From Terracidiphilus sp. (GTDB taxonomy: Bacteria; Acidobacteriota; Terriglobia; Terriglobales; Acidobacteriaceae), in contig DASYWU010000048.1 of NCBI GenBank assembly GCA_035935755.1, positions 78,829-142,828 of the forward strand: a stretch of 64,000 nucleotides of DNA, read 5' to 3'. Shown one piece after another: positions 11,056 to 35,284 of the stretch (positions are counted from its first letter, which is position 1; every line of letters starts with the position of its first letter). The notes below the pieces were generated by a model. That model had not been told where the DNA came from. It was given only the letters and a program-made list of their open reading frames with translations, and ran no database searches. A program made the position numbers and the translations under genes.

Positions 11056-11062
11056 CATTGCC

Positions 11063-18560: not shown

Positions 18561-18946
18561 TTCTTCTCGACACTCACATCCTGATCTGGCTTCTCATCGC
18601 TCCGGACAAACTCTCGTCGAAAGCCAGTAAAGCGATCGTGGCGGCCCGCAAGTCCGGGCCGCTCGCTCTTTCTGCTATCAGTTTGTGGGAAATTGCATGG
18701 CTGGCAGAGAACAAGAGGATCGACATCGATGTCAGCGTCGAGTCCTTCGTCAAAAAATGCGCTTCCTACGTGGAGGTTCTCCCCATCACTTCGGAGATTG
18801 CGGTTCGTTCTGTTCAGTTCCCGGATTCTTATCCGAAGGATCCGCAGGACAGGATGATTGGAGCTACCGCCATCGTGGAAGGCATTCGCCTTCTGACCCA
18901 TGATAAACACATCGCAAATTCCGGCCTGGTTCCATTGGCAATTTGA
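18557..18946 (+). CDS. vapC: PIN-domain toxin (VapC)
   Basis: MILLDTHILIW.., SLWEIAW, DPQDRMI and THDK motifs. ATGA start/stop overlap with the antitoxin gene. Confidence 0.85.
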   Translation: MILLDTHILIWLLIAPDKLSSKASKAIVAARKSGPLALSAISLWEIAWLAENKRIDIDVSVESFVKKCASYVEVLPITSEIAVRSVQFPDSYPKDPQDRMIGATAIVEGIRLLTHDKHIANSGLVPLAI

Positions 18947-18972
18947 GCGCCAGACCTTCCTTCACCCCGCAA

Positions 18973-18991
18973 CATGGCTATAATAGCCATG
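18973..18991 (+). promoter_or_regulatory. Perfect 19-bp palindrome CATGGCTATAATAGCCATG containing a TATAAT box (promoter/operator of vapBC module 3)
   Basis: 9-bp arms around a central A. The embedded TATAAT is at 18979-18984, and the ATG of the antitoxin is at 19002. Confidence 0.55.
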
Positions 18992-19001
18992 AAGGTGAAC
19001 C

Positions 19002-19292
19002 ATGCGCAGTGTCAACGTCGCGGTACTCAAAAACCAGTTGAGCAAGTATCTGACCTTCGCCAAAAGCGGGGAAGAAATTGTGATTCGCGATCGCAATCTT
19101 CCCGTAGCCAAGCTCATCCCCTTCTCCACCGATGATGCCAGCGAGGAAGAGCTTCTGCTGGTTGCCGCAGGCAAAATGCGGTTGCCCAAAGAATCCGCGG
19201 ATTTAGAAAAGCTCCTGAAAATTCCCTCGGGACGCACCATGGGTCGTGACGTCACGAGAGCTCTACTCGACGAGCGGGAGCAGTCGCGATGA
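19002..19292 (+). CDS. Phd/YefM-type antitoxin
   Basis: 96 aa. N-terminal VNVAVLKNQLSKYL...GEEIVIRDRNLPVAKLIP. Overlaps the downstream PIN gene. Confidence 0.75.
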   Translation: MRSVNVAVLKNQLSKYLTFAKSGEEIVIRDRNLPVAKLIPFSTDDASEEELLLVAAGKMRLPKESADLEKLLKIPSGRTMGRDVTRALLDEREQSR

Positions 19293-19723
19293 AGAAAGCA
19301 GCGGCGTTTTGGGATGCGAGCGCCCTGGTGCCGCTTTGCGTCAACGAGACCACCAGTCGCGATGCGCACGCGCAGTTGAAGGTGTTCTTACCGGTGGTTT
19401 GGTGGGGTACCCTGGTCGAAATTCACAGCGCCATCCGGCGCGGCCACCTTCTCGGGAAGCTGAACGATCAGGAGAAAGCGAAAGCTCTTGCTCGATTGTT
19501 ATTGTTATCCCGCGGGTGGAGAGAGATATTGCCGGACGACCCGCTGCGAGATTTGGCCCGTCAACTACTCGACGCGCATGACCTGCGTGCTGCCGATAGC
19601 CTCCAGCTCGCCGCAGCTCTTGTCTGGTGTCAGCACCGACCTGCGAGGAGGAATTTCCTTTCCGCCGATCGTCGCCTTTCCGAGAGCGCGAGAGCTCAAG
19701 GGTTTTCCGTCATTGAAGTCTAG
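19289..19723 (+). CDS. vapC: PIN-domain toxin (VapC)
   Basis: WDASAL, VEI, AADSLQLA and SADRRL acidic-residue motifs. 144 aa. 4-nt overlap with the antitoxin gene. Confidence 0.8.
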   Translation: MKKAAAFWDASALVPLCVNETTSRDAHAQLKVFLPVVWWGTLVEIHSAIRRGHLLGKLNDQEKAKALARLLLLSRGWREILPDDPLRDLARQLLDAHDLRAADSLQLAAALVWCQHRPARRNFLSADRRLSESARAQGFSVIEV

Positions 19724-20032
19724 GCGTTTTCGGAATCCGCCTCATGTCCACCAATCCGCCCCCACCCCCAAAAATGTGTCTTTTCCCCTCCCCGCACCGT
19801 CATAAACGTATACGGCGTTCTTCGCCGTCTCCGTCATTTACCATTGAGTTAACCTCAACGCCCGCCGGATCGGGTTCCGGCCCGAACGCCTCCACGTTCT
19901 CATGACCCGATGAACCGGTTCACTCCGGGCCGGCGCTGTTGTTGGCTCCCGCTCATTGCCTAGAGCCACGCGGATGCCGGCCGCGGTCCAGAGCGTCACG
20001 ATGAATCAGGTTCAGGAGCGACGACCAGCCCT

Positions 20033-23000
20033 ATGATGTGGATTGTCCGGCTTGCCCTGCGGCGGCCCTATACCTTCATCGTTTTCGCTCTGCTCATCCT
20101 CATCCTGGGCATCTACAGCATCGTCTCCATGCCCGTCGACATCTTCCCCAACATCGACATCCCCGTCGTCACCGTCATCTGGCACTTCACCGGCCTCTCC
20201 GCCGAGCAGATGGCCGACCGCATCGTCACCAACGCCGAACGCGGCATGACCGTCACCGTCAACGACATCGACCACATCGAGTCGCAGTCCCTGGTGGGCA
20301 TCGGCATCATCAAGGTCTTCTTCCATCCCGGCGTGAATGTCGCCCAGGCGGTCGCGCAGATCACCTCCATCAGCGCCGGCGAGGTCCGCTCCATGCCCGC
20401 CGGCACCCAGCCGCCCTTCGTCATTCAGTACAACGCCTCCAGCGTGCCTATCCTGCAGCTGGGCCTTTCCGGCCGCGGACTCAATGAGCAGCAACTCAAC
20501 GATCTGGCTACCACTACCATCCGCGTCCAGTTGGCCACCATCGAAGGCGCGCAGGAGCCCTTCCCCTACGGCGGCAAGCAGCGCTCCATCATGGTTGACC
20601 TCAACCTTCCCGCGCTGCAGGAAAGGAGCCTCTCGCCGGCAGATGTGGTCGCCGCCATCGGCAACCAGAACGTCATCGCGCCTTCGGGCACCATCAAGAT
20701 CGGCCGCTTCGAAGACCAGGTCGAAACCAACTCCGCGCCACTCACCATTGCCGGCCTTAACAACCTGCCCGTCAAAGCCGTGAACGGAACCGTCGTCTAC
20801 ATCCACGACGTAGCCCACGTCCGCGACGGTTTTACCCCGCAAACCAACGTCGTTCGCGTCGACGGCCATCGCGCCGTCCTCGTCAGCATCATGAAGACCG
20901 GCAATTCGTCGACGCTCGACATCATCAAAGCTGTCCGCGAGAAGCTGGCCTACATCCGTGGCGTCCTGCCCCCCACCCTGCAGATCAAGCCCATCGCCGA
21001 CCAGTCCATTTTTGTCAGCTCCGCTGTCGATGGCGTGGTTCACGAGGCCATCGTCGCCGCCTGCCTCACCGCGCTGATGATCCTGGTCTTCCTCGGCAGC
21101 TGGCGCTCCACCGTCATCATCGCCGTCTCCATTCCGCTTTCCATCCTCTGCTCGCTCGCCGTCCTCTACGCGCTGCACCAGACCATCAACATCATGACCC
21201 TCGGCGGCCTGGCGCTGGCCGTCGGCATCCTCGTCGACGACGCCACCGTGGCCATCGAAAACATCAATCGCCAGCTCGAAGCCGGCAAGGAGCTCGAGCA
21301 GTCCATCCTCGACGGCTCCGCCGAAATCGCCACTCCCGCCCTCGTCTCCACGCTGGCCATCTGCATCGTCTTTGTGCCCATGTTCCTGCTCAGCGGAGTG
21401 GCGCGCTACCTCTTCGTCCCCATGGCCGAGGCGGTCGTCTTCGCCATGCTCGCCAGCTACGTGCTCTCGCGCACCGTCGTCCCCACCATGGCGCTCTATC
21501 TGCTCCGCGAGCATGACGACGCCGAAAGCGCGCGCCGCCGCTCCAGCCGCAACCCTTTCACCCGCTTCCAGGTCGTCTTTGAATCCGGCTTTGAGCGCAC
21601 CCGCCGCTTCTATCTCCGCCTGCTCACTTTCTGCGTCGACCACGCCGGCGGATTTCTGCTCAGCTTTCTCGCCGTCACCGTCGCCTCCATCGCCGTCCTC
21701 ACTCCCTGGCTGGGCGAGGACTTCTTCCCCTCCGTCGACTCCGGCCAGTTCAAGATTCACGTGCGCGCTCCCACCGGCACGCGCATTGAAGAAACCGCCG
21801 CCCTCTGCGATCACGTCGATTCCACCATCCGCAGCGTGATTCCACAGGGCGAGCTGGTCACGATCCTCGACAACATCGGCCTGCCCTACTCGCCGCTGAA
21901 TCTCTCTTACTCCACCTCGGCGCCCGTCGGGCCCTCCGATGCCGACATCCAGGTCCAGCTCGCCCCCAATCACCACCCCACCGACCAATACGTCCAGCGC
22001 CTGCGCAAAATCCTGGCCGATAAGTACCCCGGCGTCGAGTTTTACGAGCTTCCTGTCGACATCGTCACCCAGATTCTCGACTTCGGCCTTTCCGCTCCCA
22101 TTGACATTCAGATCGTCGGCCCCAATGCCTATGGCAACCGCGCTCTGGCCGAGCGCATGCTCAACCAGATTCGCTACGTGCCCGGCATCGCCGACGCCCG
22201 CATCCAGCAGCCTTTCAACTATCCCAACTGGACCGTCGACGTCGATCGCACCCGTGCTGCGGAAGTGGGCCTCTCCCAGCAAAACGTCGCCCAGAGCATG
22301 CTCGTCGCGCTGAGCGGCAGCTTCCAGACCAGTCCCACCTTCTACCTCGATCCCAGCAACGGCGTCTCTTACGACGTCGCCACCCAGGCGCCGCAATACA
22401 AGCTCGATTCGCTGGCCGGCCTCAACAGCCTGCCCATCACCGCGCCCGGCGCAACCGCACGTTCCGCCTCTCCCAACCCCGGACCTCCCGGCGCCCTCAC
22501 CTCCACCACCGGCGCGCCCGGCGCACAATCTCCCCAGCAGATTCTCGGCAATCTCGCCACCATCGTCCCCGGCGCCGAGCCCGCCGTCGTCACCCATTAC
22601 GACATCATGCCCGTCATCGACATCTACGCCAACGTCGTCGGCACTGACCTGGGCACAGTCACCCGCGCCGCGGAAAAGATCGTCGCCGAGAACCAGAAGA
22701 GTCTCCCTCGCGGCTCGCATCTCATCATCCGCGGCCAGAGCGAGACCATGTACCGCTCCTACCTGGGCCTGCTCGCCGGCCTCGCCTTCTCCATCCTTCT
22801 CGTCTACCTGCTCATCGTGGTCAACTTCCAGTCCTGGCTGGATCCCTTCCTCATCATTTCGGCTCTGCCCGCGGCCCTGGCCGGCATCGTCTGGTTCCTC
22901 TTTCTCACCGGGACGCGCCTCAGCGTGCCCGCGCTTACCGGCGCCATCATGTGCATGGGCGTGGCCACCGCCAATTCCATCCTTGTCGTCAGCTTCGCCC

Positions 23001-23326
23001 GTGAGCAATTGACAGTCCTCGTCGGCGATGCCCGCCAGGCCGCGCTGAACGCCGGCTTCGTTCGCCTCCGCCCCGTCATCATGACTGCCCTCGCCATGGT
23101 CATCGGCATGGTGCCCATGGCCATGGGCCTGGGGTCGGGCGGCGAAGAGAATGCCCCGCTGGGCCGCGCCGTAATCGGCGGCCTCTCCCTGGCCACTTTG
23201 GCTACACTCTTCTTCGTTCCTGTATTTTTCTCTGTGGTGCATGGCTGGTTCGAGCGCCGCCGCAAATCCGCCCGCAGCGCCTCACGGCCTTCCACCGCCG
23301 ATGAATTCGATGAACTGTCGGAGTAG
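20033..23326 (+). CDS. RND efflux permease (AcrB/CzcA superfamily)
   Basis: 1097 aa. N-terminal RRPYTFIVFALLILILG..PVDIFPNIDIPVV, a 12-TM layout and two large periplasmic loops. Confidence 0.9.
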   Translation: MMWIVRLALRRPYTFIVFALLILILGIYSIVSMPVDIFPNIDIPVVTVIWHFTGLSAEQMADRIVTNAERGMTVTVNDIDHIESQSLVGIGIIKVFFHPGVNVAQAVAQITSISAGEVRSMPAGTQPPFVIQYNASSVPILQLGLSGRGLNEQQLNDLATTTIRVQLATIEGAQEPFPYGGKQRSIMVDLNLPALQERSLSPADVVAAIGNQNVIAPSGTIKIGRFEDQVETNSAPLTIAGLNNLPVKAVNGTVVYIHDVAHVRDGFTPQTNVVRVDGHRAVLVSIMKTGNSSTLDIIKAVREKLAYIRGVLPPTLQIKPIADQSIFVSSAVDGVVHEAIVAACLTALMILVFLGSWRSTVIIAVSIPLSILCSLAVLYALHQTINIMTLGGLALAVGILVDDATVAIENINRQLEAGKELEQSILDGSAEIATPALVSTLAICIVFVPMFLLSGVARYLFVPMAEAVVFAMLASYVLSRTVVPTMALYLLREHDDAESARRRSSRNPFTRFQVVFESGFERTRRFYLRLLTFCVDHAGGFLLSFLAVTVASIAVLTPWLGEDFFPSVDSGQFKIHVRAPTGTRIEETAALCDHVDSTIRSVIPQGELVTILDNIGLPYSPLNLSYSTSAPVGPSDADIQVQLAPNHHPTDQYVQRLRKILADKYPGVEFYELPVDIVTQILDFGLSAPIDIQIVGPNAYGNRALAERMLNQIRYVPGIADARIQQPFNYPNWTVDVDRTRAAEVGLSQQNVAQSMLVALSGSFQTSPTFYLDPSNGVSYDVATQAPQYKLDSLAGLNSLPITAPGATARSASPNPGPPGALTSTTGAPGAQSPQQILGNLATIVPGAEPAVVTHYDIMPVIDIYANVVGTDLGTVTRAAEKIVAENQKSLPRGSHLIIRGQSETMYRSYLGLLAGLAFSILLVYLLIVVNFQSWLDPFLIISALPAALAGIVWFLFLTGTRLSVPALTGAIMCMGVATANSILVVSFAREQLTVLVGDARQAALNAGFVRLRPVIMTALAMVIGMVPMAMGLGSGGEENAPLGRAVIGGLSLATLATLFFVPVFFSVVHGWFERRRKSARSASRPSTADEFDELSE

Positions 23327-23332
23327 TTTTTT

Positions 23333-24565
23333 ATGAGCGACGAACACAACCCCCACGCGCCCGCCGGATCTCACGACCAAGCCGCCGAGCAACGGCCCGT
23401 GTCCCCGCGCGCCATGCTTTTCGGCCTCGCCCTCGTGTTGCTGGTTGCCTGCGTGCTCGCCGCCATCGGCATCATCACCCGCATGCATTCTGACACCGTG
23501 CTCGCCCAGCAGACCCGCGCCCTCGCCGCGCCCACCGTCGGCGTGGCTCCGCCAAGCCCCGGCGCTCCCGTCGACAACTTCGTTCTCCCCGGCAACGTCA
23601 CCGCCTTCACCGACGCGCCCATCTATTCCCGCGTTGACGGCTACCTCACCCGCTGGTATTACGACATCGGCGCTCACGTCGAGAAGGGCGCGCTGCTCGC
23701 CGTCATCTCCGCCCCCGAAGTCGACCAGCAACTCGCCCAGGCGCAGGCCGATCTCGCCACCGCCCAGACCAACGCCAAAAATGCCAAGGTGCAGGCCGAC
23801 CGCTACAGCAACCTGGTCAAATCCAACGCCGTCTCCCGCCTTGACACCGACACCTTCGTCACCCAGGCCGCCGCCGCCGCTTCCGCCGTCCGCTCCGCGC
23901 AGGCAAACGTCGACCGACTCACCGCCATGCAGTCCTTCGAAAAAATCTACGCCCCCTTTAGCGGCGTCATCACCGCCCGCAACGTCGACACCGGCCAGCT
24001 CATCAACGCCGGCGCCGGCGCCGCGGCCGGCACTGAGCTCTTCCACATGCAGGCCATCCAAACCCTGCGCGTCTACACCAACGTGCCCCAGCTCTACTCC
24101 GGAAACATCAAGCGCGGCGAGAAAATCCCGCTCACCTTCCCCCAATTTCCCAGCCAGAACTTCGAAGGCACGCTCGTCCGCACTGCCGACGCCATCGATC
24201 CCGTAAGCCGCACCCTGCTGGTTGAAATTGACGTCAACAACCGCGACGGCAAGCTCATGCCCGGCGCGCTGGCGCAGGTTCATTTCCGCACCCCGCCCAG
24301 CGCGCCCACCTTCATCATTCCCGTCGGCGCCCTCATCTTCCGCCGCGAAGGCCTGCAGGTCGGCACAGTGGTCAACAGCAGCCGCGGCACCGTGGCGCAT
24401 CTCGCCTCCGTGGTCATCGGCCAGGACAACGGTGCCACCGTGCAAATCGTCAGCGGACTCAACGCCAACGACCGCGTCATCCAGGACCCGCCCGACTCCC
24501 TCGTCGAAGGCGAACGCGTCACCGTCGTCACTCCCGGCAGCAGCGCAGACCAGGGAGGCTTCTAG
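23333..24565 (+). CDS. RND efflux periplasmic adaptor (membrane fusion protein)
   Basis: N-terminal TM helix, a lipoyl/coiled-coil hairpin (QAQADLATAQTN..) and beta-barrel motifs (YAPFSGVITARNVD.GQL). Confidence 0.85.
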   Translation: MSDEHNPHAPAGSHDQAAEQRPVSPRAMLFGLALVLLVACVLAAIGIITRMHSDTVLAQQTRALAAPTVGVAPPSPGAPVDNFVLPGNVTAFTDAPIYSRVDGYLTRWYYDIGAHVEKGALLAVISAPEVDQQLAQAQADLATAQTNAKNAKVQADRYSNLVKSNAVSRLDTDTFVTQAAAAASAVRSAQANVDRLTAMQSFEKIYAPFSGVITARNVDTGQLINAGAGAAAGTELFHMQAIQTLRVYTNVPQLYSGNIKRGEKIPLTFPQFPSQNFEGTLVRTADAIDPVSRTLLVEIDVNNRDGKLMPGALAQVHFRTPPSAPTFIIPVGALIFRREGLQVGTVVNSSRGTVAHLASVVIGQDNGATVQIVSGLNANDRVIQDPPDSLVEGERVTVVTPGSSADQGGF

Positions 24566-24567
24566 CG

Positions 24568-26187
24568 ATGCATGCCGATTCATTTTCGGAGGGAGAAGGG
24601 GCCTTCAGGCCCCGGGAACGAAGTCCAATTAGGGAAAATACCCCAATATCGACCGGAGCTTTAGCCCCCGAGGGATGCCCCGTACCCCATCCTTTCGCGC
24701 TTTTTGCGAAAGGGTGGGACACCCGAAAAGTCGCCTACGCAGCCGCCCTCACCACCCTCATCCTCCTCGCCGGCTGCCATCCCGTCGGCCCCAACTACAA
24801 CCGTCCCGGCTACCACGCGCCCACCGCCTACAAGGACACTGGCGCCACCGCGGTCGTCACCCCTCCGCCCAACCCGCAGGGTGGCGCATGGTCGCCCGCC
24901 AATCCCTCCGACGGCATGCTCAAAGGCAAATGGTGGCAGATCTACAACGACCCCGCGCTCGACACGCTCGAGGACCGCGTCACCACCAACAACGTCCAGT
25001 TGCAGCAGGCCTACCAGACTTACCAGGCCGCGCGCGCCCAGGTTTCCGTGGTGCGCGCCAATCTCTTCCCCGTCCTCTCCGCCGGCGCTTCCATCAGCCG
25101 CAGCCGCTCCTCCGCCCACCGTCCCCTGGCCTCCTCCTCAAGCAACACCACCGCCAACGACTACTTCCTTGGCGGCCAGGCCTCCTGGGAGCCCGATTTC
25201 TGGGGCCGCATCCGCCGCGGCATTGAAGCCGCCCATGCCAACTACCAGGCCACCGCCGCCGACATGGCCAACATCGACCTCAGCCTGCACGCCGAAATGG
25301 CCACCGATTACTTCGCGCTTCGCGGCCTCGATGCCCAGCAGCAGTTGCTCACGCGCACCGTCGGCGACATGCAGCACCAGCTGGATCTCGCTGACCAGCG
25401 CCTTCGCGGCGGCGTGGCCACCGAAGCCGATGTTGAGCTCGCCCGCACCCAGTTGCAAACCACGCGCGCCCAGCTTGTCGATGTCGGCGTCGCCCGCGCC
25501 CAGTTCGAGCACGCCATCGGCACCCTCGCCAATTACGACATCACCAGTTTCGCTGTCCCGGCTGCGCCGCTCGACCTGCCTCTTCCCAAGGTGCCCACCG
25601 GCGTTCCCTCGCAACTCCTCCAGCGCCGTCCCGATATCGCCGTCGCCGAGCGCCTCACCGACGCCGCCAACGCGCAGATCGGCATCGCCATCAGCGCCTT
25701 TTATCCCACCATCACTCTCGGCGCTTCCGGCGGATTCGAAAGCACCCACCCCGGCACCTGGATCCAGGGCCCCAGCGCCATGTGGAGCCTCGGCGCGCAG
25801 GCCACCGAGCTGCTCTTCGACGCCGGCCAGCGCCACGCCTTCACCGCCGAAGCGCAGCACAACTACCTCGCCCAGACCGACGCCTACCGCAACACTGTCT
25901 TCCAGGCCTTCAACGACGTCGAAGACCAGCTCTCCACCCTCCAGATCCTCGAGCAGGAAGCCTCCGTCGAAGGCCAGGCCGTGGCCTCCGCGCAAAGCTC
26001 CTTCAATATCTCGAATCAGCGCTACCAGGGCGGCGTGACCAGCTATCTCGAAGTCCTCACCGCCGAAGCCGCGCTCCTCCAGAACCAGCGCACCGCCATC
26101 GACATCGAAACCCGCCGCTTCGCCGCCAGCGTAGGCCTGGTCCGCGCCCTCGGCGGCGGCTGGGATGTAACTCAGCTGCCGAAATAG
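24568..26187 (+). CDS. RND efflux outer membrane factor lipoprotein (NodT family), with an anomalous N-terminal extension of about 60 aa
   Basis: Lipobox LLAGC followed by PVGPNYNRP, two OEP repeats, and a C-terminal ALGGGW motif. The only canonical in-frame start is the ATG at 24568. Confidence 0.8.
   Translation: MHADSFSEGEGAFRPRERSPIRENTPISTGALAPEGCPVPHPFALFAKGWDTRKVAYAAALTTLILLAGCHPVGPNYNRPGYHAPTAYKDTGATAVVTPPPNPQGGAWSPANPSDGMLKGKWWQIYNDPALDTLEDRVTTNNVQLQQAYQTYQAARAQVSVVRANLFPVLSAGASISRSRSSAHRPLASSSSNTTANDYFLGGQASWEPDFWGRIRRGIEAAHANYQATAADMANIDLSLHAEMATDYFALRGLDAQQQLLTRTVGDMQHQLDLADQRLRGGVATEADVELARTQLQTTRAQLVDVGVARAQFEHAIGTLANYDITSFAVPAAPLDLPLPKVPTGVPSQLLQRRPDIAVAERLTDAANAQIGIAISAFYPTITLGASGGFESTHPGTWIQGPSAMWSLGAQATELLFDAGQRHAFTAEAQHNYLAQTDAYRNTVFQAFNDVEDQLSTLQILEQEASVEGQAVASAQSSFNISNQRYQGGVTSYLEVLTAEAALLQNQRTAIDIETRRFAASVGLVRALGGGWDVTQLPK
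24600..24717. repeat. REP-like hairpin element inside the 5' end of the OMF ORF
   Basis: First hairpin GGGGCC-ttca-GGCCCC at 24600-24615. Second, a 14-bp stem CCCATCCTTTCGCG/TGCGAAAGGGTGGG at 24685-24717, containing two G:T wobble pairs. Confidence 0.5.
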
Positions 26188-26294
26188 GAACCGCGGTCTT
26201 GGGCCAGTGTCCCACGGCCTACGACACACTAACAATCCCGTTCCCACTACGGCGCTTGCATAAGAAACCAGGCCGTGTTTCTCAGGAGCGGCTC

Positions 26295-26756
26295 CTATCC
26301 GGAGGAAGCCAACACATCATCTGGCGATAGAACAATGATGCCGCTGTACCGCCGAAAGTCCTTGTCATTGAGCGTCAGCAAGTTCGCAATTCCGTGTACG
26401 CGCATCGCTGCCACCATGCGAGCGTCGTGAACCTGAATACCAGAGATGCCCGCTGCAACTAGAATTCTCCGCCACTCTCGATGTGTGGCCTCGCTATCAG
26501 CGGCAAAAGAGAATCTGGATTCGATCAGAGCAGTGCGTTCATCCGTCTCTGCGATCGAGAATCCGAATCCATTCCGGTCAGCCGGTCGCGTGCAGACGCT
26601 CCAGAATTCAGCCAGATTTTGCGATGTTTAGAAGAGGTCCGCTCCCTGTGCCCAAAGACGATCCGTACATTGCCGGATCGTTGCATATTCGGGGCTGTCC
26701 GGCTGTACGAGGCGGAGCAGAATATTCGTGTCCACCAGGTAGGACGAGCCGGGCAT
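26295..26756 (-). pseudogene. vapC: PIN-domain toxin (VapC) interrupted by an in-frame TAA at codon 43
   Basis: My manual reverse translation gives MPGSSYLVDTNILLRL...LWAQGADLF*TSQNLAEFWSV...LTLNDKDFRRY. The stop is at 26628-26630. ATGA overlap with the upstream antitoxin gene. Confidence 0.8.
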
Positions 26757-27013
26757 CAGGCGTGTTCACCGTAGATCATTTCCCGTGAAAAAGTCTCGGT
26801 CCGCAGTTGCGGGATATTCGGCGCTTTGCTCGCAAGCGCATCCAGAAACGCGCGAAATTCTTCCTGGCTTGCACGTGCATGCCCTTTGCCCCTGAACGCG
26901 ATCGCTTCCTGAAGAAGCCGCTGCGCATACATCTCCAGCGCCATGCCGCGAGCCATTGCTTCAGCGGCAAGCTGTCTTTCCATCTCCGGGTTGAGTTCGA
27001 CACGGATGGTCAT
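26756..27013 (-). CDS. Antitoxin of the disrupted vapBC-like module
   Basis: 85-aa ORF (MTIRVELNPEMERQLAAEA..) immediately upstream of, and overlapping, the PIN reading frame. Confidence 0.65.
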   Translation of the reverse strand: MTIRVELNPEMERQLAAEAMARGMALEMYAQRLLQEAIAFRGKGHARASQEEFRAFLDALASKAPNIPQLRTETFSREMIYGEHA

Positions 27014-27075
27014 GGAAGCCTCGCTCTACCAATTATCGGATGTTGGCGGCGTGAAGTCGACTCAGGCCTTGATTT

Positions 27076-27231
27076 GCGGCGTCGCCGGCTACTCGAAGTC
27101 CTCACCGCCGAAGCCGCGCTCCTCCAGAACCAGCGCACCGCATCGACATCGAAACCCGCCGCTTCGCCGCCAGCGTAGGCCTGGTCCGCGCCCTCGGCGG
27201 CGGCTGGGACATAACGCAATTGCCGAAGTAA
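27076..27231 (+). pseudogene. Orphan copy of the OMF gene 3' end (copy B), frameshifted
   Basis: 27092-27231 matches 26047-26187 except for a 1-bp deletion (caccgccatc versus caccgcatc) and 7 substitutions in the last 27 nt. Weaker similarity extends upstream to about 27076. Confidence 0.85.
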
Positions 27232-27374
27232 CACTCCCGACTGAAGATCCACGGCTGCCCTCGTGAACCCCGACTTGACCCCCGGCCGAGACCACTCCCC
27301 AGCCGCCCCCGGCATCTATGCGCTTGCGAGAGTGTAGAACGCCGTTCCCATATCCCCAGTCCAGGAGTATATAG

Positions 27375-28841
27375 ATGAAAAACAGCTGTATCTTATTGGC
27401 GGCTTCCATGATAGCCGCGTGCCCGGGAGCAAGCGCGCAGACGCCCATCTTCGGCCAGAGGACCTATACCGGCCTGTACACCTATAACCACGCCGACCTG
27501 AACCGCACCGGGCGCGAGAGCCTGATCTACCACACCCAGACATCGGGGTTTGCCGTGGTGCTAAGCACCGGTCCCGGCACCTATGCCGCGCCGGTGGACT
27601 ACAACGTCCCCGACAATCAGCCTTCCGGAACCATCACCCTGGACATCAACAACGACAGTTTCCCTGACGTGATTGCCTTCAACAGCTCCGCCCCGGGATT
27701 TTACGAATATCTCAACAATGGCGATGGATCCCTCCACCTCCAGTCCACCTACCAGATGGCTAATATCCAGGACATGGTAGTAGGCGATTTCAATCACGAC
27801 GGCTACCCGGATATCGCCTTCACCACCCTCGACGGCAACCTGCATGTGTGGTTCAACAATCACGCCAGCGGTTTCTCGGTAGGGCCGACCACCACCGTGC
27901 CAGGCACCTGGCAGTTGAGCATCGGCGATTTTGATGGCGACGGCAAAGCCGACATTGCCGCAACCGGCAGCAACGGAACCTATCTCTACTTCGGCGACGG
28001 CGCCGGCCACTTCGCGGTGGTAAACGCGACCACCTCCCATCATCCTTATATGTTCCTGATGGACATCGATGGCGACGGCAAGAGTGACCTCGTCGGCGCG
28101 GCCATCGCCGGAAGCAGCAGCGGGAACAACACCTACTACCGCGATCTGTGGGTGGTCTACGGCAACTCCTCGCGCACCATCACTGAGGCCGACATTCCCC
28201 TCAACGGCTACGTGATGCCGTGGCAGGATGGATACGTTCTCGGCGAGGCGACCCCCAGCGTCGACGTGGCCGATTTCAACGGCGACGGCAAACGGGATTT
28301 CGCCGTTGTCGAAGCATTGGACAGCGACGGATATGGTGGCCGCACGCTCGCCGTGAAATCGGGAAACGGCAATCGCACCTGGGCCGACGAGGTCAATGTC
28401 TACTCTGACAACAATCTCGACGCCGGCGTGGCCGCGCTCCGCGTCGAGCATTCGCTCAAGCCCGATCTGCTGGTGGACACCTTCCTGAACCCTTCCACCT
28501 TTACCGCGCATTTCTTCATCAACGACACCTCGGGCGGCTACTACGGCGGATGCGATTTCCCCAGCGAGGCCTCGGCAATTGCCATCTGCTCGCCGGAGAC
28601 CTACAGCTCCTCTCCGCAGTCGTGGAAACTAAGTGGAGCGGTGCCGACCACCATGCGCAAAATGGAGATCTGGGTCGATGGCGTGAAGAAGTACCAGGAA
28701 ATCGGCAACCATGACTTTGGGCATTACGGGGTGCTGGACACCACGCTCACGCTCTCGTCTGGCACGCACAAAGTAACGGTGATCGCAGCCGGATACGACA
28801 ATCTGGAAGTAAAGGACACGTTAACCGTCTCCGTACCCTGA
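27375..28841 (+). CDS. Secreted FG-GAP/VCBS repeat protein with a C-terminal Ig-like region
   Basis: Signal peptide, and repeated D.[DN]GDG..D calcium-binding loops (DFNHDGYPD, DFDGDGKAD, DIDGDGKSD, DFNGDGKRD). Confidence 0.8.
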   Translation: MKNSCILLAASMIAACPGASAQTPIFGQRTYTGLYTYNHADLNRTGRESLIYHTQTSGFAVVLSTGPGTYAAPVDYNVPDNQPSGTITLDINNDSFPDVIAFNSSAPGFYEYLNNGDGSLHLQSTYQMANIQDMVVGDFNHDGYPDIAFTTLDGNLHVWFNNHASGFSVGPTTTVPGTWQLSIGDFDGDGKADIAATGSNGTYLYFGDGAGHFAVVNATTSHHPYMFLMDIDGDGKSDLVGAAIAGSSSGNNTYYRDLWVVYGNSSRTITEADIPLNGYVMPWQDGYVLGEATPSVDVADFNGDGKRDFAVVEALDSDGYGGRTLAVKSGNGNRTWADEVNVYSDNNLDAGVAALRVEHSLKPDLLVDTFLNPSTFTAHFFINDTSGGYYGGCDFPSEASAIAICSPETYSSSPQSWKLSGAVPTTMRKMEIWVDGVKKYQEIGNHDFGHYGVLDTTLTLSSGTHKVTVIAAGYDNLEVKDTLTVSVP

Positions 28842-28905
28842 GCCGAAACCGCCGGGGGACAGCCGGCACCCTCAAAACAGCCGTCCGTCCCCCGCACTCC
28901 TGCCC

Positions 28906-29028
28906 AACCAGCGCACCGCCATCGACATCGAAACCCGCGGGTGCCCCCGGTCTCGATCCTGAGACCGGGGACGCCGCAGCTCCAGCACCCGATCCAGCCC
29001 TTTCTCCCGCCCCGTTTCGCCGCCAGCG
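28906..29028 (+). pseudogene. Third, short remnant of the OMF gene 3' end (copy C), split by an inserted hairpin element
   Basis: 28906-28938 (33 nt) is identical to 26084-26116. The match resumes for 13 nt (ttcgccgccagcg) at 29016-29028. Confidence 0.75.
28939..29012. repeat. REP/MITE-like palindromic insertion
   Basis: About 74 bp interrupting OMF remnant C. Contains a perfect 10-bp stem CCCCGGTCTC-gatcct-GAGACCGGGG at 28945-28970. Confidence 0.55.
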
Positions 29029-29068
29029 CGATCCGGTTTGCGATTTTTAAAATCTGCCGCCGCGTTCT

Positions 29069-30250
29069 TTATTGCTCATCCACCGGCTTCCCCTTCGTGG
29101 CCTGGCCCTGGTTGCCGGGCGCAGTGCTCGAGAACTGTCCCGACATAATTGCCTCGGTCTCCTTGTGCACCCTGGCGATATCGGCTGTCGAGCGGATGGC
29201 CTCCGAGTTCGCCTCGTTGAGCGCACGTTGCGTTGCGCGTAGCAGTTCCAGGTAATCAGGTTTCTTCTGCATCTGCGCCTTTTGCTGTGCGTTAGCCTCA
29301 CCCTTCTGCGGCTGATCCGTACCTGATTCCTGGTTGCGCTCGTTTGGCGTCCCAGCATCCGAGCCTGGTTGCCGCTTGGGTCCGTACCGGATGGCCGCCT
29401 GGGCTTGCAAGTCTGCAAGCTGTTTTTTCAGGCTTTCTACTTTCTCACGACTGGCTACGAGGGCTTCGCCGTCGCGCACGGTGCGTTTCAGAATCTCCCC
29501 GTAAACCGGAGTAAGCCGCTGAGGATCTGGCGTAGTGGTGAAATGTACAGGCGGCGCCGAGCTGCACTGCACCCCGATGGGGTTGCCGTGCAGCGCTTCC
29601 ATGGCTTCGCCGGCCAGATATTTCACCTCGTCGAGCTCCCGGGCGTCAGCATCACCGGTAGCAATTTTGTGGACATCTTCCACAGCGTAGTTCGCCAGTT
29701 CGGCGGAGCAATGAAGCTGCTTCCAGGCGGTGATTACGTCACGCTGATTCGAGTCTGCAGATCGCGCCTTGATGCCGTAGTTCGGATTTCCCGCCGCTTC
29801 CTCCGGTGAAACTCCCTTGAGCCCGAAAGTGGAATCGCCGATGCCCTTGAGCTGCATGTTGTCCGCAGTGACACCCTTCAGGTGAGACGCCGCATCCGCC
29901 ACTCCAGCCCTCCACTCCTCCTCTGCCTTCGCCCGCTCCGCAGCCTCCCGGTCCTCTTCAAGCTTCTGCTGGCGCTCTAGCTCTATGAGCCGATGTTGCT
30001 CCTCCTCTTTGGCGCGTTGGGCCTGGATTTCGGCTTCCGAAGGCCCGGAGTAGTTGGAACCATCAGATGATCCGCCCGAGCCTGCGCTACAACGCACAAC
30101 GTGGCCGTTGTAATCAATGCAGTCGCCGGTCGGAGTTTGCGCATGCAGCCGCTGCGATATGACGCAGAATACCATCGCGATTCCTGCGAATAGTACAGAG
30201 TTCACGAAGAACTTCCCCATTCCGCTTCTCGTCGCCATATCGAGTCTCAT
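29069..30250 (-). CDS. Hypothetical secreted coiled-coil protein
   Basis: 393 aa. Hydrophobic N-terminal segment, an E/Q/R/A-rich coiled-coil stretch (EAEIQAQRAKEEEQHRLIELERQQKLEEDREAAERAKAEEE) and a Q/K-rich tail. It is the last gene of the minus-strand block. Confidence 0.6.
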   Translation of the reverse strand: MRLDMATRSGMGKFFVNSVLFAGIAMVFCVISQRLHAQTPTGDCIDYNGHVVRCSAGSGGSSDGSNYSGPSEAEIQAQRAKEEEQHRLIELERQQKLEEDREAAERAKAEEEWRAGVADAASHLKGVTADNMQLKGIGDSTFGLKGVSPEEAAGNPNYGIKARSADSNQRDVITAWKQLHCSAELANYAVEDVHKIATGDADARELDEVKYLAGEAMEALHGNPIGVQCSSAPPVHFTTTPDPQRLTPVYGEILKRTVRDGEALVASREKVESLKKQLADLQAQAAIRYGPKRQPGSDAGTPNERNQESGTDQPQKGEANAQQKAQMQKKPDYLELLRATQRALNEANSEAIRSTADIARVHKETEAIMSGQFSSTAPGNQGQATKGKPVDEQ

Positions 30251-30333
30251 CCCCTCCTCCGTTGACTAATCGTGCGAGCGCAGCCAACATTCTCAATACC
30301 TAGATCGGAGCATATTGCCAAGAGCCTTCCACA

Positions 30334-31227
30334 CTAATGCTGCTGTTGCACTTCCCGCTGGGCTAGCATTATGGAAGAACAATTCAATCCGTCCGCACCT
30401 ATGTACGGATACGGTTTTTGGTGATCGCATTCCATTTCCACGTAAGGAGCAAAATTCAGTAATGAGCATTCTTGACCTTGAACGTCTATCGATCCGCCGC
30501 CTCCTTCTAAACTTGGACGCACGCTATAAACTGCTCCGACCACCAAGCGATTGCGAAAGCCGGGGCATCTAGTTTCAATGACGGTATTGTCTTGCCACCA
30601 ATAATCGAACCTCCATGGGTACTGTTGCGTGCTCATTGCAAAACCAATTCTTCCCCCGCCTTCCCCCAGGAATTGGATTTGCGCAGGTTCGTTACTTTTC
30701 CATAGATTGTCCAAGGCGGCATGCGCCGCTGTTGAATCGCTGGAAGGCTGGCTTTTTGTGTACTTAATTCCCTCGATCCTTCCTCGTACTGCCCCCGCAT
30801 CGGGCGCATCCGGTGCAGCAACAAGATAGAAGTTGAGTGCGTGAATCGCTTCGTCATACTGTGCAGCCTTTTCAGCTGCGGCGGCTTCATTGAAGTAATA
30901 ATCAGAAACCCATGGTGCGACTTGGGATGCCTGCGCGAAAGCTGCCGCAGCAGCTTTCACATCATCCGGCGTGGTCGCGTGAGCAAAGATCGTCTTCGCC
31001 TTGCCGTCGGCAGCTTGAGCTTCTTCGGGCACCGCCGGCTTGGGATCGAGCGTCAAAGCGAGCTTAATGATCTTCGTCCGCAGCGCATCGTTCGAGGGAT
31101 CTGCCTGCAACTGCGTAACGTACTGTTGAAGTTGATCACGAGGAGTGGGACTTCCGCCCTGCTGCCCGCGAACGCCGGTCCAAACGAAGATCATTGCCAG
31201 CGCGACGAGAATTGAGTTTTGGCGCAT
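30334..31227 (-). CDS. Modular secreted paralog P1 (conserved N-module plus unique C-module)
   Basis: Signal peptide. N-module PRDQLQQYVTQLQADPSNDALRTKIIKLALTLDPKPA...APWVSDYYFNE...AIHALNFYLVAAP..VRGRIEGIKY. Unique 130-aa C-terminus. Confidence 0.7.
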   Translation of the reverse strand: MRQNSILVALAMIFVWTGVRGQQGGSPTPRDQLQQYVTQLQADPSNDALRTKIIKLALTLDPKPAVPEEAQAADGKAKTIFAHATTPDDVKAAAAAFAQASQVAPWVSDYYFNEAAAAEKAAQYDEAIHALNFYLVAAPDAPDAGAVRGRIEGIKYTKSQPSSDSTAAHAALDNLWKSNEPAQIQFLGEGGGRIGFAMSTQQYPWRFDYWWQDNTVIETRCPGFRNRLVVGAVYSVRPSLEGGGGSIDVQGQECSLLNFAPYVEMECDHQKPYPYIGADGLNCSSIMLAQREVQQQH

Positions 31228-31309
31228 AGATCACCCATCCAGTCGAACGTGAAATGCTGACTATCGAATTCCCATTTGCTCCGATCCAAATTCAGGACTC
31301 CAACGCCAG

Positions 31310-32365
31310 TTATCTCCCGCGACTTTTCGTTCTCTTTGCCACACTCATGCCAAGAACCCAGTACCCGTCACGAGTTTCTGTTGCATAGACGGTGCCGTTG
31401 ACGTAACCCGTCCACGAAATCTCCTTTTCACTTATCGTGCCCATCGCGTAGCAGTAGGCATTGCGGGGTATGTCGCCGTAGTCGCGGGCGCAATTTGGCA
31501 ACGGAACACGGAATGCTCGTCCATCGATCGGGTAGTCGAAGGTTTGGTGGTCTATCAGGCGGTTGCCACCGTCGTAATGGCCGCTATAGGCTTCATATTC
31601 TTCGGATATTCTGTCACCTGTTATCGTCCAAGTCACGATAAAGCGGTTGCCCAAACTATCAGCGCGCTCGTGGCTGTAAACCGCACCGTCCAAGGAACGG
31701 ACCAACGGGTCAAGATTTGCGAGTCGCTGCTGTTCTTCACGCTGCGCTTGCTCTCGAGCTCGTTTAGCGTCAAGTTCTCGTTGACGCTCAGCTTGCGCCT
31801 CAGCGTCTCTTCTTTCTTGCTCCGCCTTTGCCTCCGCATCCTTTTGTGCCTGTTCTGCCTGCGCCGCGGCTTGTTGCTGTTCAAGGACGTAAGAAAGTGC
31901 GCCGATCTTTTCGCGGACCTTCTTCGCGTCCGGCGATTCCTGCGGATAAGCCAGGTTGCTCAGCTTGTAATTCCTCAAAGCGTCGGCGGGGTGGTTGGCC
32001 TTCTCGTATGCAACGGCAGCATCGAAGTAGTAATCCGGCAGCCAGGGCACAACAAGAGTTACCTTCTCGAAAGCATCTGCGGCCTTAAGCAGATCGTCGG
32101 GGGAAGTGGCATGCTCGAAAATGTATTGCGCTCGTCCAGCCAATTCATCAGCTTCCGGAGGAATGGCCGGAGGTGGCTGGAGTTGCTGCGCCAACTGAAT
32201 GATCTTCGTCCGCAGCACGTCATCCGACGGGTTCGCCTGCAACTGCGTCTCGTACTGCTGGAGCTGCTCGCGCGGGCTTGTGGTTTCCTGAGCTAAAGCA
32301 GAAGCTGCGTAGATTGCAATAATCGCGATGGACAGGGCGCGGAGAGGCATAACGTGTCGCTTCAT
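31310..32365 (-). CDS. Modular secreted paralog P2
   Basis: Signal peptide and the most divergent copy of the N-module (PREQLQQYETQLQANPSDDVLRTKIIQLAQQLQPPPA). Long Q/A/E/R coiled-coil linker and a unique C-terminus. Its ATG overlaps the P3 stop (ATGA). Confidence 0.7.
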   Translation of the reverse strand: MKRHVMPLRALSIAIIAIYAASALAQETTSPREQLQQYETQLQANPSDDVLRTKIIQLAQQLQPPPAIPPEADELAGRAQYIFEHATSPDDLLKAADAFEKVTLVVPWLPDYYFDAAVAYEKANHPADALRNYKLSNLAYPQESPDAKKVREKIGALSYVLEQQQAAAQAEQAQKDAEAKAEQERRDAEAQAERQRELDAKRAREQAQREEQQRLANLDPLVRSLDGAVYSHERADSLGNRFIVTWTITGDRISEEYEAYSGHYDGGNRLIDHQTFDYPIDGRAFRVPLPNCARDYGDIPRNAYCYAMGTISEKEISWTGYVNGTVYATETRDGYWVLGMSVAKRTKSRGR

Positions 32366-33288
32366 TGGTTCGCTACCTTCTCTAATGTGATGTTCTCATC
32401 CGTACAATTGAGCAAATTGTGGCGTTGAAACACAGACCTATCCTGGGGTGTCAGGTTGGGGTTTACATAATAAGAGAGTGACAAATAGATCCGCGTATTA
32501 TCGGTACTTATCGATCCATGGAATTGTCCAATGATGCAACTAGTTCGCCCTGCGCCCGGGTGATCTGTAAACCGACCCGCGAAACTGTGACCAGCCAAGG
32601 TGCCACTTCCGCTCTCTAGTCCATCAATTATGGGCCCTCCGTCCCGTGCACTTGGACCCATCCCATAAGTGATGCTCAGGTTGTCTCCGGACAAGTGGAA
32701 CCTATATACCCAAGCGGAAGGTTCCTCCAAAGACCACGTGCCGTTAATTGCATCCCGCAACTCTGCTTCCTTTTGCCTAGCGTTTATGGCCTCTTCGGCC
32801 TGCTCCTGCCGGGCACTGCTCTCCTTTTCATACTTAATTCCCTCGATCTTCCCACGCACATCGGCGGCATCTGCTGCATTCGGCGCTGCGAGTAGGTAGA
32901 AGTTAAGTGCGTGAATCGCGTCGTCAAATTGCTTTGCCTTTTCGAAGGCGAGCCCCTCGTTGTAGTAATAATCCGGCATCCAGGGCGCTAACAGCGACGC
33001 CTGAGCAAAGGCTGCTGCTGCAGCTTTCATGTCGTCCGTCGAACCGGCGCTGGCAAAGATCGTCTTGCCTTTGGCGGCGTCGACGGCAGCATCTTGCGTC
33101 GCCGCCGGTTTGGGATCGAGCGTCAGCGCCAGTTGAATAATCTTCGTCCGTAGCGCATCGTCTGTCGGATTCGCCTGTAACTGCGCCACGTACTGCTGCA
33201 ACTGCTCGCGCGAAATCGGCGGAGATTGAGAATGCAGATAGCACAAGCAAATCGCCGCGAAAAAGAGGGCGTGAAGAATCGTTCTCAT
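32362..33288 (-). CDS. Modular secreted paralog P3
   Basis: I chose the start at MRTILHALFFAAICL (ATG at 33288) rather than the ORF-track start at 33483. N-module SREQLQQYVAQLQANPTDDALRTKIIQLALTLDPKPA. Unique C-terminus. Confidence 0.7.
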   Translation of the reverse strand: MRTILHALFFAAICLCYLHSQSPPISREQLQQYVAQLQANPTDDALRTKIIQLALTLDPKPAATQDAAVDAAKGKTIFASAGSTDDMKAAAAAFAQASLLAPWMPDYYYNEGLAFEKAKQFDDAIHALNFYLLAAPNAADAADVRGKIEGIKYEKESSARQEQAEEAINARQKEAELRDAINGTWSLEEPSAWVYRFHLSGDNLSITYGMGPSARDGGPIIDGLESGSGTLAGHSFAGRFTDHPGAGRTSCIIGQFHGSISTDNTRIYLSLSYYVNPNLTPQDRSVFQRHNLLNCTDENITLEKVANQ

Positions 33289-33337
33289 TGAAATTGTCCT
33301 CCTTACCGTGTCCACACTCATTCTGCTCAGCATGTCG

Positions 33338-34225
33338 TTATTGGCGATGCAGCTCAACGCTCTCTGTCCCATCAGCTGGTGCATCCATGTTACCCATAAT
33401 CGCGCAGCTTCCAACCAAAGCTGAGCCGCCGCCCTCAGTACTAAGAGAACAGTCCGCTGTTTGCCATGCGCTTCTAAAGGCATAGCGCACTCTGAAGCTC
33501 ACATTGGAGCCTTCAATCCGGTAGCTTTGCAAGTTCGTTACGTCGCACAAGTCACCGCAATCCAAATGGACCGAGTATGTATTACCTGTGCGGCTTACTT
33601 CCAATGCATTCCCCATGTATGGTGAGATAACGTAATGGTGCGGGATAATGAACGACCATCTGCCAACGACTGCGTTCCGGCGCGCTTCCTCTTGCGCCTG
33701 AGTCTGTTTCGCTCTTTCCTCCTGTTCCTGCTGCGCCTGTTGCGAAATTTGATATTTGAGTGCACCAATGTTTTCCCTGACCGTGTCGGCATCGGTCGCG
33801 CCCGGTGCCGCTAGCGAATAGAACTGATAGGCTTTTATCGCTTCCTCCAGACGCTTAGCTTTTTCAAACGCCAGGCCCTCATTGAAATACAGATCAGCGC
33901 GCCAGGGCGCTTCGAGCGCCGCCTTCGCATAGAGATTTGCCGCATTGATCAAGTCCGCGCCGGACTGCGCACTCTTGAAGGCATACGTCGCGGCGCCGAT
34001 CGTCTCCGGCAGGTCGGGCGGATCCGCCGGCTTCGGATCCAGCGTCAGCGCAAGCTGAATGATCTTCGTCCGCAACGCATCGTCTGCCGGATTCGCCTGT
34101 AACTGTGTCACATTCTCCTGCAACTGCTCGCGAGGACTTAACGAAAGAGCTTGATTCTGCGCCGACGTTCTGTAAAACGTTGCTGCCAGGAAAACAATTA
34201 CGAGATAATGTCTTCGCGAAGTCAC
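33338..34225 (-). CDS. Modular secreted paralog P4
   Basis: Signal peptide. N-module PREQLQENVTQLQANPADDALRTKIIQLALTLDPKPA. QQEQEERAKQTQAQEEARR linker. Unique Cys-containing C-terminus. Confidence 0.7.
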   Translation of the reverse strand: MTSRRHYLVIVFLAATFYRTSAQNQALSLSPREQLQENVTQLQANPADDALRTKIIQLALTLDPKPADPPDLPETIGAATYAFKSAQSGADLINAANLYAKAALEAPWRADLYFNEGLAFEKAKRLEEAIKAYQFYSLAAPGATDADTVRENIGALKYQISQQAQQEQEERAKQTQAQEEARRNAVVGRWSFIIPHHYVISPYMGNALEVSRTGNTYSVHLDCGDLCDVTNLQSYRIEGSNVSFRVRYAFRSAWQTADCSLSTEGGGSALVGSCAIMGNMDAPADGTESVELHRQ

Positions 34226-34318
34226 TCTGCTCCTCCGTGTAAACCAAAATCCACAGCGATCCCAACTTCCAAACCGTTCATGGTTATATTTGACTCCGGA
34301 TTCTGCCGGTCTCCCGTT

Positions 34319-35284
34319 TCACCACGGACATACCGAGCTCGTGCTGCCGGGGTCGCTCACGCGCGAATAGATGAACGGGATCTCTCCCGGAAAGCGAGCA
34401 TCATTATCCTCTATCTCGCCGTTGCTGTTGATCTGCAGGCTGTCGGTTTCACCGAACGCCGTAAACGTGGCAATCCGGCCGGAGACATGACCTTTTCGTG
34501 AGCTAATCCGGCCCGGCCCGTTCCCATAAGAGTCAGAACGATCCTGGCACCACGTTTCCGTGATTTCATCTCCGGATATGTCGAACTTCACATGCGAAAG
34601 ATAGTAATTGTCCCATCGTCCCCTGACACCGCGAAATTGTTGGACACGTTCGGCTCCTCCCGTGATTCTCCAAGTGCCCGACCATTGGTTCTGCAATTCC
34701 GCTTGCTCTCGCTGCTGTTCCTGCTCCTGGCGTTGCTGCGCTTCCTCTTGCTGTCGCTGCGCAGTTTGGGCGGCGTCCTTTTGCGTAAGCTGATATTTGA
34801 GCGCCCCAATCTGTTTCGTTACCTGGTCCGTATCCTTTGCGTTCGGTGCCGCGAGCAAATAAAGTTGGTACGCGGCAATTGCCTTCGGCTGCTCGTTCGC
34901 CTTCTCGTAGCACATGCCGAGGTTGTAATAATCGCCGGCATTCCAGGGGGCAAGCAGCAGGGCCTGTTCGTACTCGGCGGCGGCACTTGTGAAGTCCGCT
35001 GGGGACTGAGCATGCTTGAACGCATACTCGGCAGCGCCTTCGTGTTCGATCGCACCGGTGGGGATTTCAGGCCTGGGATCGAGCGTGAGCGCGAGTTGAA
35101 TGATCTTCGTCCGCAGCGCGTCGTTGGACGGGCTTGACTGCAGTTGCGTGACGTACTGCTGGAGTTGCTCGCGCGGGCTTGGCTGTGTTTGGCTCTTCGC
35201 CCGTACAGCGAATCCGAGAATAGCCACGCAGCCTGCTACAGCTAACATCGGTTCAAGAAATACACTCCATCGCCTTCTACCCAT
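34319..35284 (-). CDS. Modular secreted paralog P5
   Basis: I chose the start at MGRRRWSVFLEPMLAVAGC (ATG at 35284). N-module PREQLQQYVTQLQSSPSNDALRTKIIQLALTLDPRPE. Q/E-rich linker. Unique C-terminus. Confidence 0.65.
   Translation of the reverse strand: MGRRRWSVFLEPMLAVAGCVAILGFAVRAKSQTQPSPREQLQQYVTQLQSSPSNDALRTKIIQLALTLDPRPEIPTGAIEHEGAAEYAFKHAQSPADFTSAAAEYEQALLLAPWNAGDYYNLGMCYEKANEQPKAIAAYQLYLLAAPNAKDTDQVTKQIGALKYQLTQKDAAQTAQRQQEEAQQRQEQEQQREQAELQNQWSGTWRITGGAERVQQFRGVRGRWDNYYLSHVKFDISGDEITETWCQDRSDSYGNGPGRISSRKGHVSGRIATFTAFGETDSLQINSNGEIEDNDARFPGEIPFIYSRVSDPGSTSSVCPW

Follow-up and report, generated by a model that had tools for sequence, protein, structure and literature searches.

Introduction

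Certain integrative elements replace the 3′ end of the protein-coding gene at which they integrate and build up there in tandem, as e14 and phage 21 do at icd and the staphylococcal cassette chromosome (SCC) elements do at rlmH. Arrays of orphaned gene ends are a textbook feature of polymorphic toxin loci, where the usual account invokes selection for new toxin tips and the retention of immunity genes. Here we describe such an orphan-end architecture at an ordinary efflux-pump gene rather than at a toxin locus. It lies in a 64,000-nucleotide stretch of DNA from Terracidiphilus sp. (Acidobacteriaceae; GenBank assembly GCA_035935755.1, contig DASYWU010000048.1, positions 78,829 to 142,828 of the forward strand), referred to as the window, to whose first letter all positions are relative unless another contig is named. 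The 3′ end of the gene encoding the outer-membrane factor (OMF) of a resistance–nodulation–division (RND) efflux operon is present there three times, and the copies bracket two small gene cassettes. On balance, the locus is probably a homology-anchored 3′-end displacement array.

Several described systems bear on this arrangement. In rhs arrays, the upstream gene is followed by near-identical partial copies of its core, which vary in length and each carry a tip of their own, and an ancestral tip has been displaced independently in different strains, for which homologous recombination with circular intermediates has been invoked (Jackson et al. 2009, PMC2935791). For the effector–immunity arrays of type VI secretion systems (T6SS), homology-facilitated illegitimate recombination (HFIR; defined in PMC3240628) has been proposed (Kirchberger et al. 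2017, PMC5361080). Tycheposons, which carry an integrase and reside at tRNA genes, serially push older inserts away from their target (bioRxiv 10.1101/2020.12.28.424599).

The OMF locus resembles the rhs, CdiA, and T6SS arrays in that an intact gene is followed by 3′ fragments in the same orientation, with incomplete, near-identical cores that differ in length, each with a tip and a linked gene of its own; in that an orthologous tip is still attached to its gene in a related strain; in the lack of an integrase; and in the processes proposed, namely homologous recombination with circles or HFIR. It differs from them in that the gene is an RND outer-membrane factor and not a polymorphic toxin, in that the tips are nine nearly synonymous codons with nothing diversified, and in that the cargo consists of unrelated cassettes (an opposite-strand vapBC pair and FG-GAP proteins) and not of cognate immunity genes. 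With the integrative elements that replace 3′ ends, it shares a gene end duplicated as flanking direct repeats, an incoming copy that restores the gene, and newer arrivals that displace older ones outward, leaving degenerate repeats and cargo-only remnants. Unlike those elements, it has no integrase, its repeat boundaries vary, one junction lies at a microhomology, and its cassettes measure only 0.9–1.7 kb.

Results

The RND operon spans 20033–26187 on the forward strand and encodes an AcrB-type permease (20033–23326; Pfam ACR_tran), a membrane-fusion protein (23333–24565; HlyD_D23), and the intact OMF (24568–26187; OEP). Copy A of the gene end (26034–26187) is the current 3′ end of this gene. 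Sequence comparison divides it into a core shared with copy B (26047–26160) and a tip, which we call type 1 (26161–26187; GAT GTA ACT CAG CTG CCG AAA TAG), followed by a type-1 downstream flank, f1 (26188–26215). A BLAST search of the window with A returned copy B at 27076–27227 (93.5% identity over 154 nt, E=4e-62). This forward-strand orphan occupies 27080–27231, or begins at 27076 if a shared GCGG is included; it ends in a type-2 tip, GAC ATA ACG CAA TTG CCG AAG TAA, and is linked to a type-2 flank, f2, that contains the promoter region of an FG-GAP gene (27232–27374). Over 113 nt (27092–27204), B equals A 26047–26160 save one deleted C. Its last 27 nt show seven differences, of which five are synonymous, one changes Val to Ile, and one changes TAG to TAA, much as a sequence-only reading of the window had described them. 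That reading's statement that B equals A apart from one deletion and seven substitutions holds for 27092–27231; B in fact reaches 12–16 nt further left (to 27076–27080), and these first 12 nt add three substitutions and a second 1-bp deletion, so that B holds two such deletions.

Copy C is split, as had been reported, although the boundaries and the insert length needed adjusting. Its left part (28892–28938) corresponds to OMF positions 26069–26115 (E=3e-13), and 28906–28938 matches A at 33/33 positions. A 73-nt insert follows (28939–29011), with a hairpin that has a perfect 10-bp GC-rich stem (CCCCGGTCTC-N6-GAGACCGGGG). The right part (29012–29028; 16/17 identical, OMF positions ~26115–26131) is cut short and directly abuts the region downstream of a 393-aa gene; both parts read in the forward direction. 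The perfectly matching core blocks are thus of unequal length, 113/113 in B apart from the 1-bp deletion and 33/33 in C. The presence of three copies, first noticed in the sequence-only reading, is therefore upheld by BLAST and sequence comparison with small corrections of coordinates, and BLAST revealed no further OMF-end copy in the 64 kb. Direct repeats containing the OMF end bracket a vapBC pair (A and B) and an FG-GAP gene (B and C), as the same reading had it. In an independent Logan assembly of run SRR12347812, two unitigs are exact matches to 26136–27121 and 27180–28935 and are interrupted only inside the repeats, so the junctions are real and not an assembly artifact.

The history of the locus can be read from a sister genome. 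Contig L083, a 206-kb JGI contig that was reached only through a search with the FG-GAP protein, carries the operon at 91–93% nucleotide identity. In it, the OMF gene (8206–9831) is followed directly by the FG-GAP gene (10001–11464), with neither vapBC nor a duplicated gene end between them. The window segments that end at 26187 and start at 27076 both align to L083 9674–9831, which makes this an evolutionary empty site for vapBC. L083 9674–11468 is collinear with B and with the flank and FG-GAP gene that follow it, and window 27232–28841, which comprises the flank and the FG-GAP gene, is 87% identical to L083 9832–11468. The functional end of the OMF gene in L083 reads GAC ATA ACT CAA TTG CCC CAA TAG. 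Two codon pairs of this end, the derived GAC ATA (Asp-Ile) and CAA TTG, recur in B, while GAT GTA/GTG is found in A and most outgroups. This collinearity and the shared derived codons identify B as a former functional end, in agreement with the earlier view of B as a once-functional allele. As L083 lacks vapBC and has a type-2 functional end, the vapBC insertion is recent and specific to the lineage of the window, which gives the order of events: the FG-GAP gene with its type-2 end preceded the vapBC module. Neither B nor C is a leftover of a second RND operon, an alternative that the sequence-only reading had itself raised.

L083 also contains a counterpart of the displaced end. After its FG-GAP gene lies a hairpin with an OMF remnant, C′ (11474–11636), which runs from OMF position 26114 to the stop codon and continues into 28 nt (11611–11638) homologous to f1 at window 26188–26215; by BLAST, window 26115–26213 matches L083 11538–11636 at 84%. 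A and C′ share the ancestral-like GAT/AAT GTA/GTC codons in addition to the 28-nt flank. Two end types can hence be distinguished: type 1, ancestral-like and with f1, in A and C′, and type 2, linked to the FG-GAP gene, in B and the functional end of L083. The tip and flank of A differ in type from those of B, and they diverge from C′ more than neutral DNA does. The flanks f1 and f2 are non-homologous, and the segments between copies are mutually unrelated. A second, more decayed hairpin with an OMF remnant (L083 16205–16340) lies 4.7 kb beyond the first, and the two bracket a minus-strand FG-GAP-repeat gene of 1441 aa (11778–16103) that is absent from the window. Window 29029–30064, immediately after C, is orthologous to L083 16380–17414, immediately after the second remnant. 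Within each genome the copies evolve in concert: GTA/CTG is found in both window copies and GTT/CTC in both L083 copies. Such sharing of genome-specific bases means that homologous recombination or gene conversion acts between the repeats.

The hairpin unit of C precedes both OMF remnants in L083. It has four distinct copies in 2.65 Mb, three of which adjoin OMF remnants; one more match, in L084, is a duplicate of a copy in L083. An abundant repetitive extragenic palindromic (REP) element is ruled out by this count. The hairpin element is older than the split from L083 and was duplicated there along with the OMF remnant.

The cassette between A and B is a portable, minus-strand vapBC module (26289–27079), consisting of two genes and ~65 nt of promoter region. 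It is separated from f1 by a spacer (26216–26288) that has no match in any fetched locus. The module recurs in six other contigs at ~86% nucleotide identity, and in contexts resembling integrative and conjugative elements (ICEs) the similarity covers exactly that span. Here vapB (26756–27013) and its upstream promoter-like site (27032–27060; −35/−10-like) look intact, and vapC (26295–26756) is a pseudogene, with a single in-frame nonsense codon (TAA, 26628–26630) where close homologues carry Tyr43, a detail that adds to the original description of the pair.

The junction between the module and B is informative. The ICE-borne module in contig L179 reads ...GATTTGCGG|TGGCCC, and the window reads ...GATTTGCGG|CGTCGCC..., that is, ...GATTTGCGG|CGTCGCCGGCTA-CTCGAAG.... 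At the corresponding position the OMF gene reads CAGGGCGG|CGTGACC, or in its longer form CAGGGCGG|CGTGACCAGCTATCTCGAAG. The switch from module to OMF sequence lies across a shared 4-nt microhomology, GCGG (27076–27079), and there is no element-specific arm between the two, a pattern characteristic of illegitimate joining through microhomology. An apparent extension of B leftward to ~27050 proved spurious: 27050–27075 is the conserved vapB promoter region. The predicted excision junction of a 1045-bp circle would read ...GATTTGCGGCGTCGCCGGCTA followed by the core and the A tip.

Both cassettes are found in other contexts, as the sequence-only reading had anticipated. The nearest vapBC relatives (86–90% amino acid identity) are carried by ICE-like islands that also have genes for TraG/VirD4, NikA, and ArdC. 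A gene of 426 aa adjoins vapBC in L170/L171 and L173; it is tyrosine-recombinase-like, as judged from a weak, sub-threshold Pfam match to the integrase SAM-like domain and from catalytic motifs in our own reading of the sequence. The end of these islands (L170/L171 ~7880–8054; L173) terminates in a putative 5′-half fragment of tRNA-Leu, read by eye, and this same island end adjoins purL in one contig and pyrimidine-biosynthesis genes in another. The second cassette, on the forward strand, is a single FG-GAP/VCBS gene of 488 aa (27375–28841; Pfam FG-GAP_3). Its orthologues (~80% nucleotide identity) occur at four unrelated loci, where the homology is limited to the coding region and promoter and where no OMF sequence lies nearby. 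In no context found did the FG-GAP cassette have mobile-element neighbors.

For a wider comparison, 160 orthologous Terracidiphilus loci (62–78% OMF identity) were fetched by scans of genome_contigs and metagenome_contigs; the closest relative in these two scans was no nearer than 78% amino acid identity, and a protein look-up returned no record for the exact OMF sequence. The operon and ~9 kb upstream of it are syntenic across the fetched loci, and synteny breaks exactly at the OMF stop codon in 80/80 genome_contigs loci tested, tblastx coverage falling from 80/80 loci to ~0 past 26187. The OMF gene is therefore a natural one-sided anchor. Its 3′ region shows ordinary synonymous divergence across the genus and is not a conserved DNA site. 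A convergent gene of ~690 aa lies downstream of the OMF gene in 47/80 species; since this ancestral neighbor is absent from the window, no large-scale empty site exists. A sliding identity window against L083 along the operon revealed no segment of differing divergence that would point to an imported block within the OMF gene. The 5′ part of the OMF open reading frame (ORF) is atypical: 24601–24800 is 59–71% identical to L083 as compared with ~92% elsewhere, and a peptide encoded there (…GCPVPHPFALFAKGWD…) resembles a translated intergenic repeat. Orthologues begin to align at residue 54–70, so the true start is probably downstream of 24568.

Among the scanned orthologous loci, a duplicated OMF gene end was found only in L083 and in a second lineage, L152/L154, whose OMF is 63% identical to that of the window. 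In L152/L154, hicA-like and hicB-like genes (L152 11566–12370), identified by eye from their translations, come right after the OMF stop; a 20/21-nt orphan copy of the gene's last bases (L152 12216–12236; AAA TAA to AAG TAA) follows, and then the ancestral neighbor gene of ~700 aa. The hicAB cassette is also present in L168 and L008, where the orphan end is absent, so that three of the more distant species carry it. A scan for the last 24 nt (≤4 mismatches) in the 6 kb downstream of the gene at 161 loci yielded only this case and gave no genuine control hits. The orphans start at OMF positions 26034 (B), ~26069 (C), and ~26150 (L152), and in L083 the remnants begin beside the hairpin, at 26114/26116. 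A crossover point around 26150–26162 may be shared across events. L152 also contains a repeat of ~59 nt (12284–12342, 15067–15125, 19907–19958) that is found in L076, L039, L078, and L077 as well and is probably REP-like.

No recombinase was detected locally. Pfam scans of ORFs across the whole 64 kb returned no integrase, transposase, or resolvase domain, which extends the earlier statement on integrases and transposases to the full window, and no reverse transcriptase. Scans of the region gave no tRNA gene and no Rfam family. Viral contigs scanned with a degenerate OMF-end motif produced 0 hits. With Xer recombination in mind, the core was inspected for a dif-like motif by eye only, and none was seen.

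Discussion

The comparison with L083 supports a scenario in which the OMF end was replaced twice by incoming DNA that brought its own gene end, the older ends and their cassettes being stacked downstream. To this extent the successive 3′-end replacements and stacked relics of the sequence-only reading are sustained by the empty site. DNA of related strains would carry the same OMF gene with different downstream genes. On entry, it would recombine with the chromosome through homology within the OMF gene, which would serve as the anchor, and illegitimate joining over a few bases of microhomology would attach its far end within the last 20–150 nt of the resident gene; equivalently, a small circle could be integrated by RecA through the shared OMF segment. 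Either way, the incoming DNA would supply a working gene end, and the resident end with its cargo would be shifted downstream as an orphan. In the first event, the FG-GAP gene would have arrived with a type-2 end and displaced the ancestral type-1 end, now remnant C. In the later event, the vapBC module would have arrived with a type-1 end and flank and displaced the type-2 end, now B. The perfect 113-nt block of A and B would represent a recombination or gene-conversion tract, and gene conversion between the repeats is independently indicated by the bases that they share within each genome. RecA and illegitimate joining as the enzymology, and the route of DNA entry, are what we infer from these patterns.

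Displacement of this kind is close to HFIR, in which homology anchors the DNA at one end and a short microhomology serves to join the other; both the GCGG junction and the place of the OMF gene, after which conservation stops, fit. For the microhomology on one side, a length of 3–10 nt applies in HFIR, and GCGG falls within it. HFIR is, however, known from laboratory transformation and conjugation, and its classical events usually delete recipient DNA, whereas here an orphan is left. Because the alternative OMF ends are functionally equivalent, the stacking would be a mechanical consequence of the entry of foreign DNA beside a conserved gene and not the outcome of selection on tips. The array gives the impression of a side effect of gene transfer, not of a device.

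Several points weigh against homology-anchored displacement. No donor genome with the order OMF–f1–vapBC was present among the fetched loci, so the anchor step is one that we infer. If the event was linear and homology-anchored, core A came from the donor and core B is the resident one, and a perfect match between them then calls for either a donor that was almost identical or a later conversion. The differences are clustered at the left ends of the orphans (the first 12 nt of B hold three substitutions and one deletion, and 4/14 positions differ in C), with perfect blocks after them, a distribution that simple decay does not explain. The hairpin insert of C sits at OMF position 26115/26116, where both L083 remnants start, and this position could mark a preferred point of exchange. 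Orphans occur in only 3 lineages among ~160 loci, so the process must be rare. Finally, a recombinase could be encoded outside the window. Together, the 113-nt identity, the clusters of changes at the left ends, and the position of the hairpin keep a trans-acting recombinase a live rival.

The best placed of the rivals is site-specific integration of the att-like kind that the sequence-only reading had suggested. In the form considered here, the cassettes would lack an integrase, each would carry an OMF 3′ segment as attP, and a tyrosine or serine recombinase encoded elsewhere in the genome would insert and excise them, an arrangement that would resemble ccr-less SCC elements or cargo-only remnants of tycheposons. 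Each cassette is indeed bracketed by direct repeats of the end of the target gene, the identical inner core with its diverged flanks resembles an att core, and the newest insert adjoins the gene, as in serial tycheposon integration. Both remnants in L083 start at the OMF position where C carries its hairpin insert, which points the same way, as do the islands that carry close vapBC relatives beside the weakly matching tyrosine-recombinase-like gene. Against this, no recombinase is detectable in 64 kb, the left boundaries of the orphans vary, and the vapBC module meets its orphan at a 4-nt microhomology without an element arm. The OMF 3′ region diverges like ordinary coding sequence, the ICE-like islands with vapBC terminate in the tRNA-Leu fragment read by eye and not in OMF sequence, and the OMF-end motif was in none of the viral contigs scanned. 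The 113-nt block, for its part, fits homologous recombination or gene conversion. We therefore disfavor the att-like aspect and regard site-specific integration as unlikely, if deserving of serious consideration.

Less credible still, to about the same degree, are two further proposals. In one, the cassettes would be the last remnants of larger integrative elements (ICE or prophage) that had integrases of their own and were later almost wholly deleted. The vapBC relatives at the integrase-proximal end of ICE-like islands speak for it, as does the inactivated vapC toxin, which would be expected in a decaying element; yet two precise deletions per element would be required, the islands in question target tRNA-Leu to judge from the fragment read by eye, homology to them ends at the edges of the vapBC module, and the FG-GAP cassette is without mobile-element neighbors in any context. 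We consider this improbable. The other proposal, to which we give a similarly slim chance, is that the 113-nt core, possibly with the hairpin unit, is a dedicated capture site at which a recombinase encoded elsewhere inserts, excises, and shuffles single-gene cassettes. If true, the end of a housekeeping-type gene would here act as an integron-like platform for which toxin–antitoxin modules are frequent cargo.

We give hardly any credence to local tandem duplication, to an assembly artifact, or to A and B as the variable and template repeats of a diversity-generating retroelement, a pair that B superficially recalls by lying ~1 kb downstream of the gene end, since the inter-copy segments are unrelated and f1 and f2 non-homologous, independent unitigs confirm the junctions, the differing bases of B (C, A, G, A, T, G, A) are not limited to adenines, and a reverse transcriptase is absent. 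Template-switching duplication of the type seen in microhomology-mediated break-induced replication was likewise rejected: under that process A and B would have ended up with the same tips and flanks, and these differ.

To our knowledge, few transfer mechanisms are recognized in soil Acidobacteria. As homology-anchored displacement, the OMF locus would provide a dated, sequence-level case of integrase-free gene gain in these organisms, and it suggests that short orphaned gene ends could serve as genome-wide markers of such events.

Other features of the window

Upstream of the RND operon, the gap between a glutathione-peroxidase gene and the operon measures ~2.3 kb in the window (17442–19772) and ~0.6 kb in L083, a second indel between the two genomes. 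Downstream of C, 29069–36685 holds seven paralogous minus-strand genes (297–429 aa, weak TPR_9 matches) with repeat families of 117 nt and 300 nt, and this array is followed by a FecR-domain gene (37191–38144); an orthologous array is present in L083. Further upstream, 6033–6354 contains imperfect tandem repeats with a spacing of 12–15 nt, within a minus-strand ORF (6035–6595), and by our own reading of the sequence they would encode a Lys/Ala-rich, histone-H1-like repeat.

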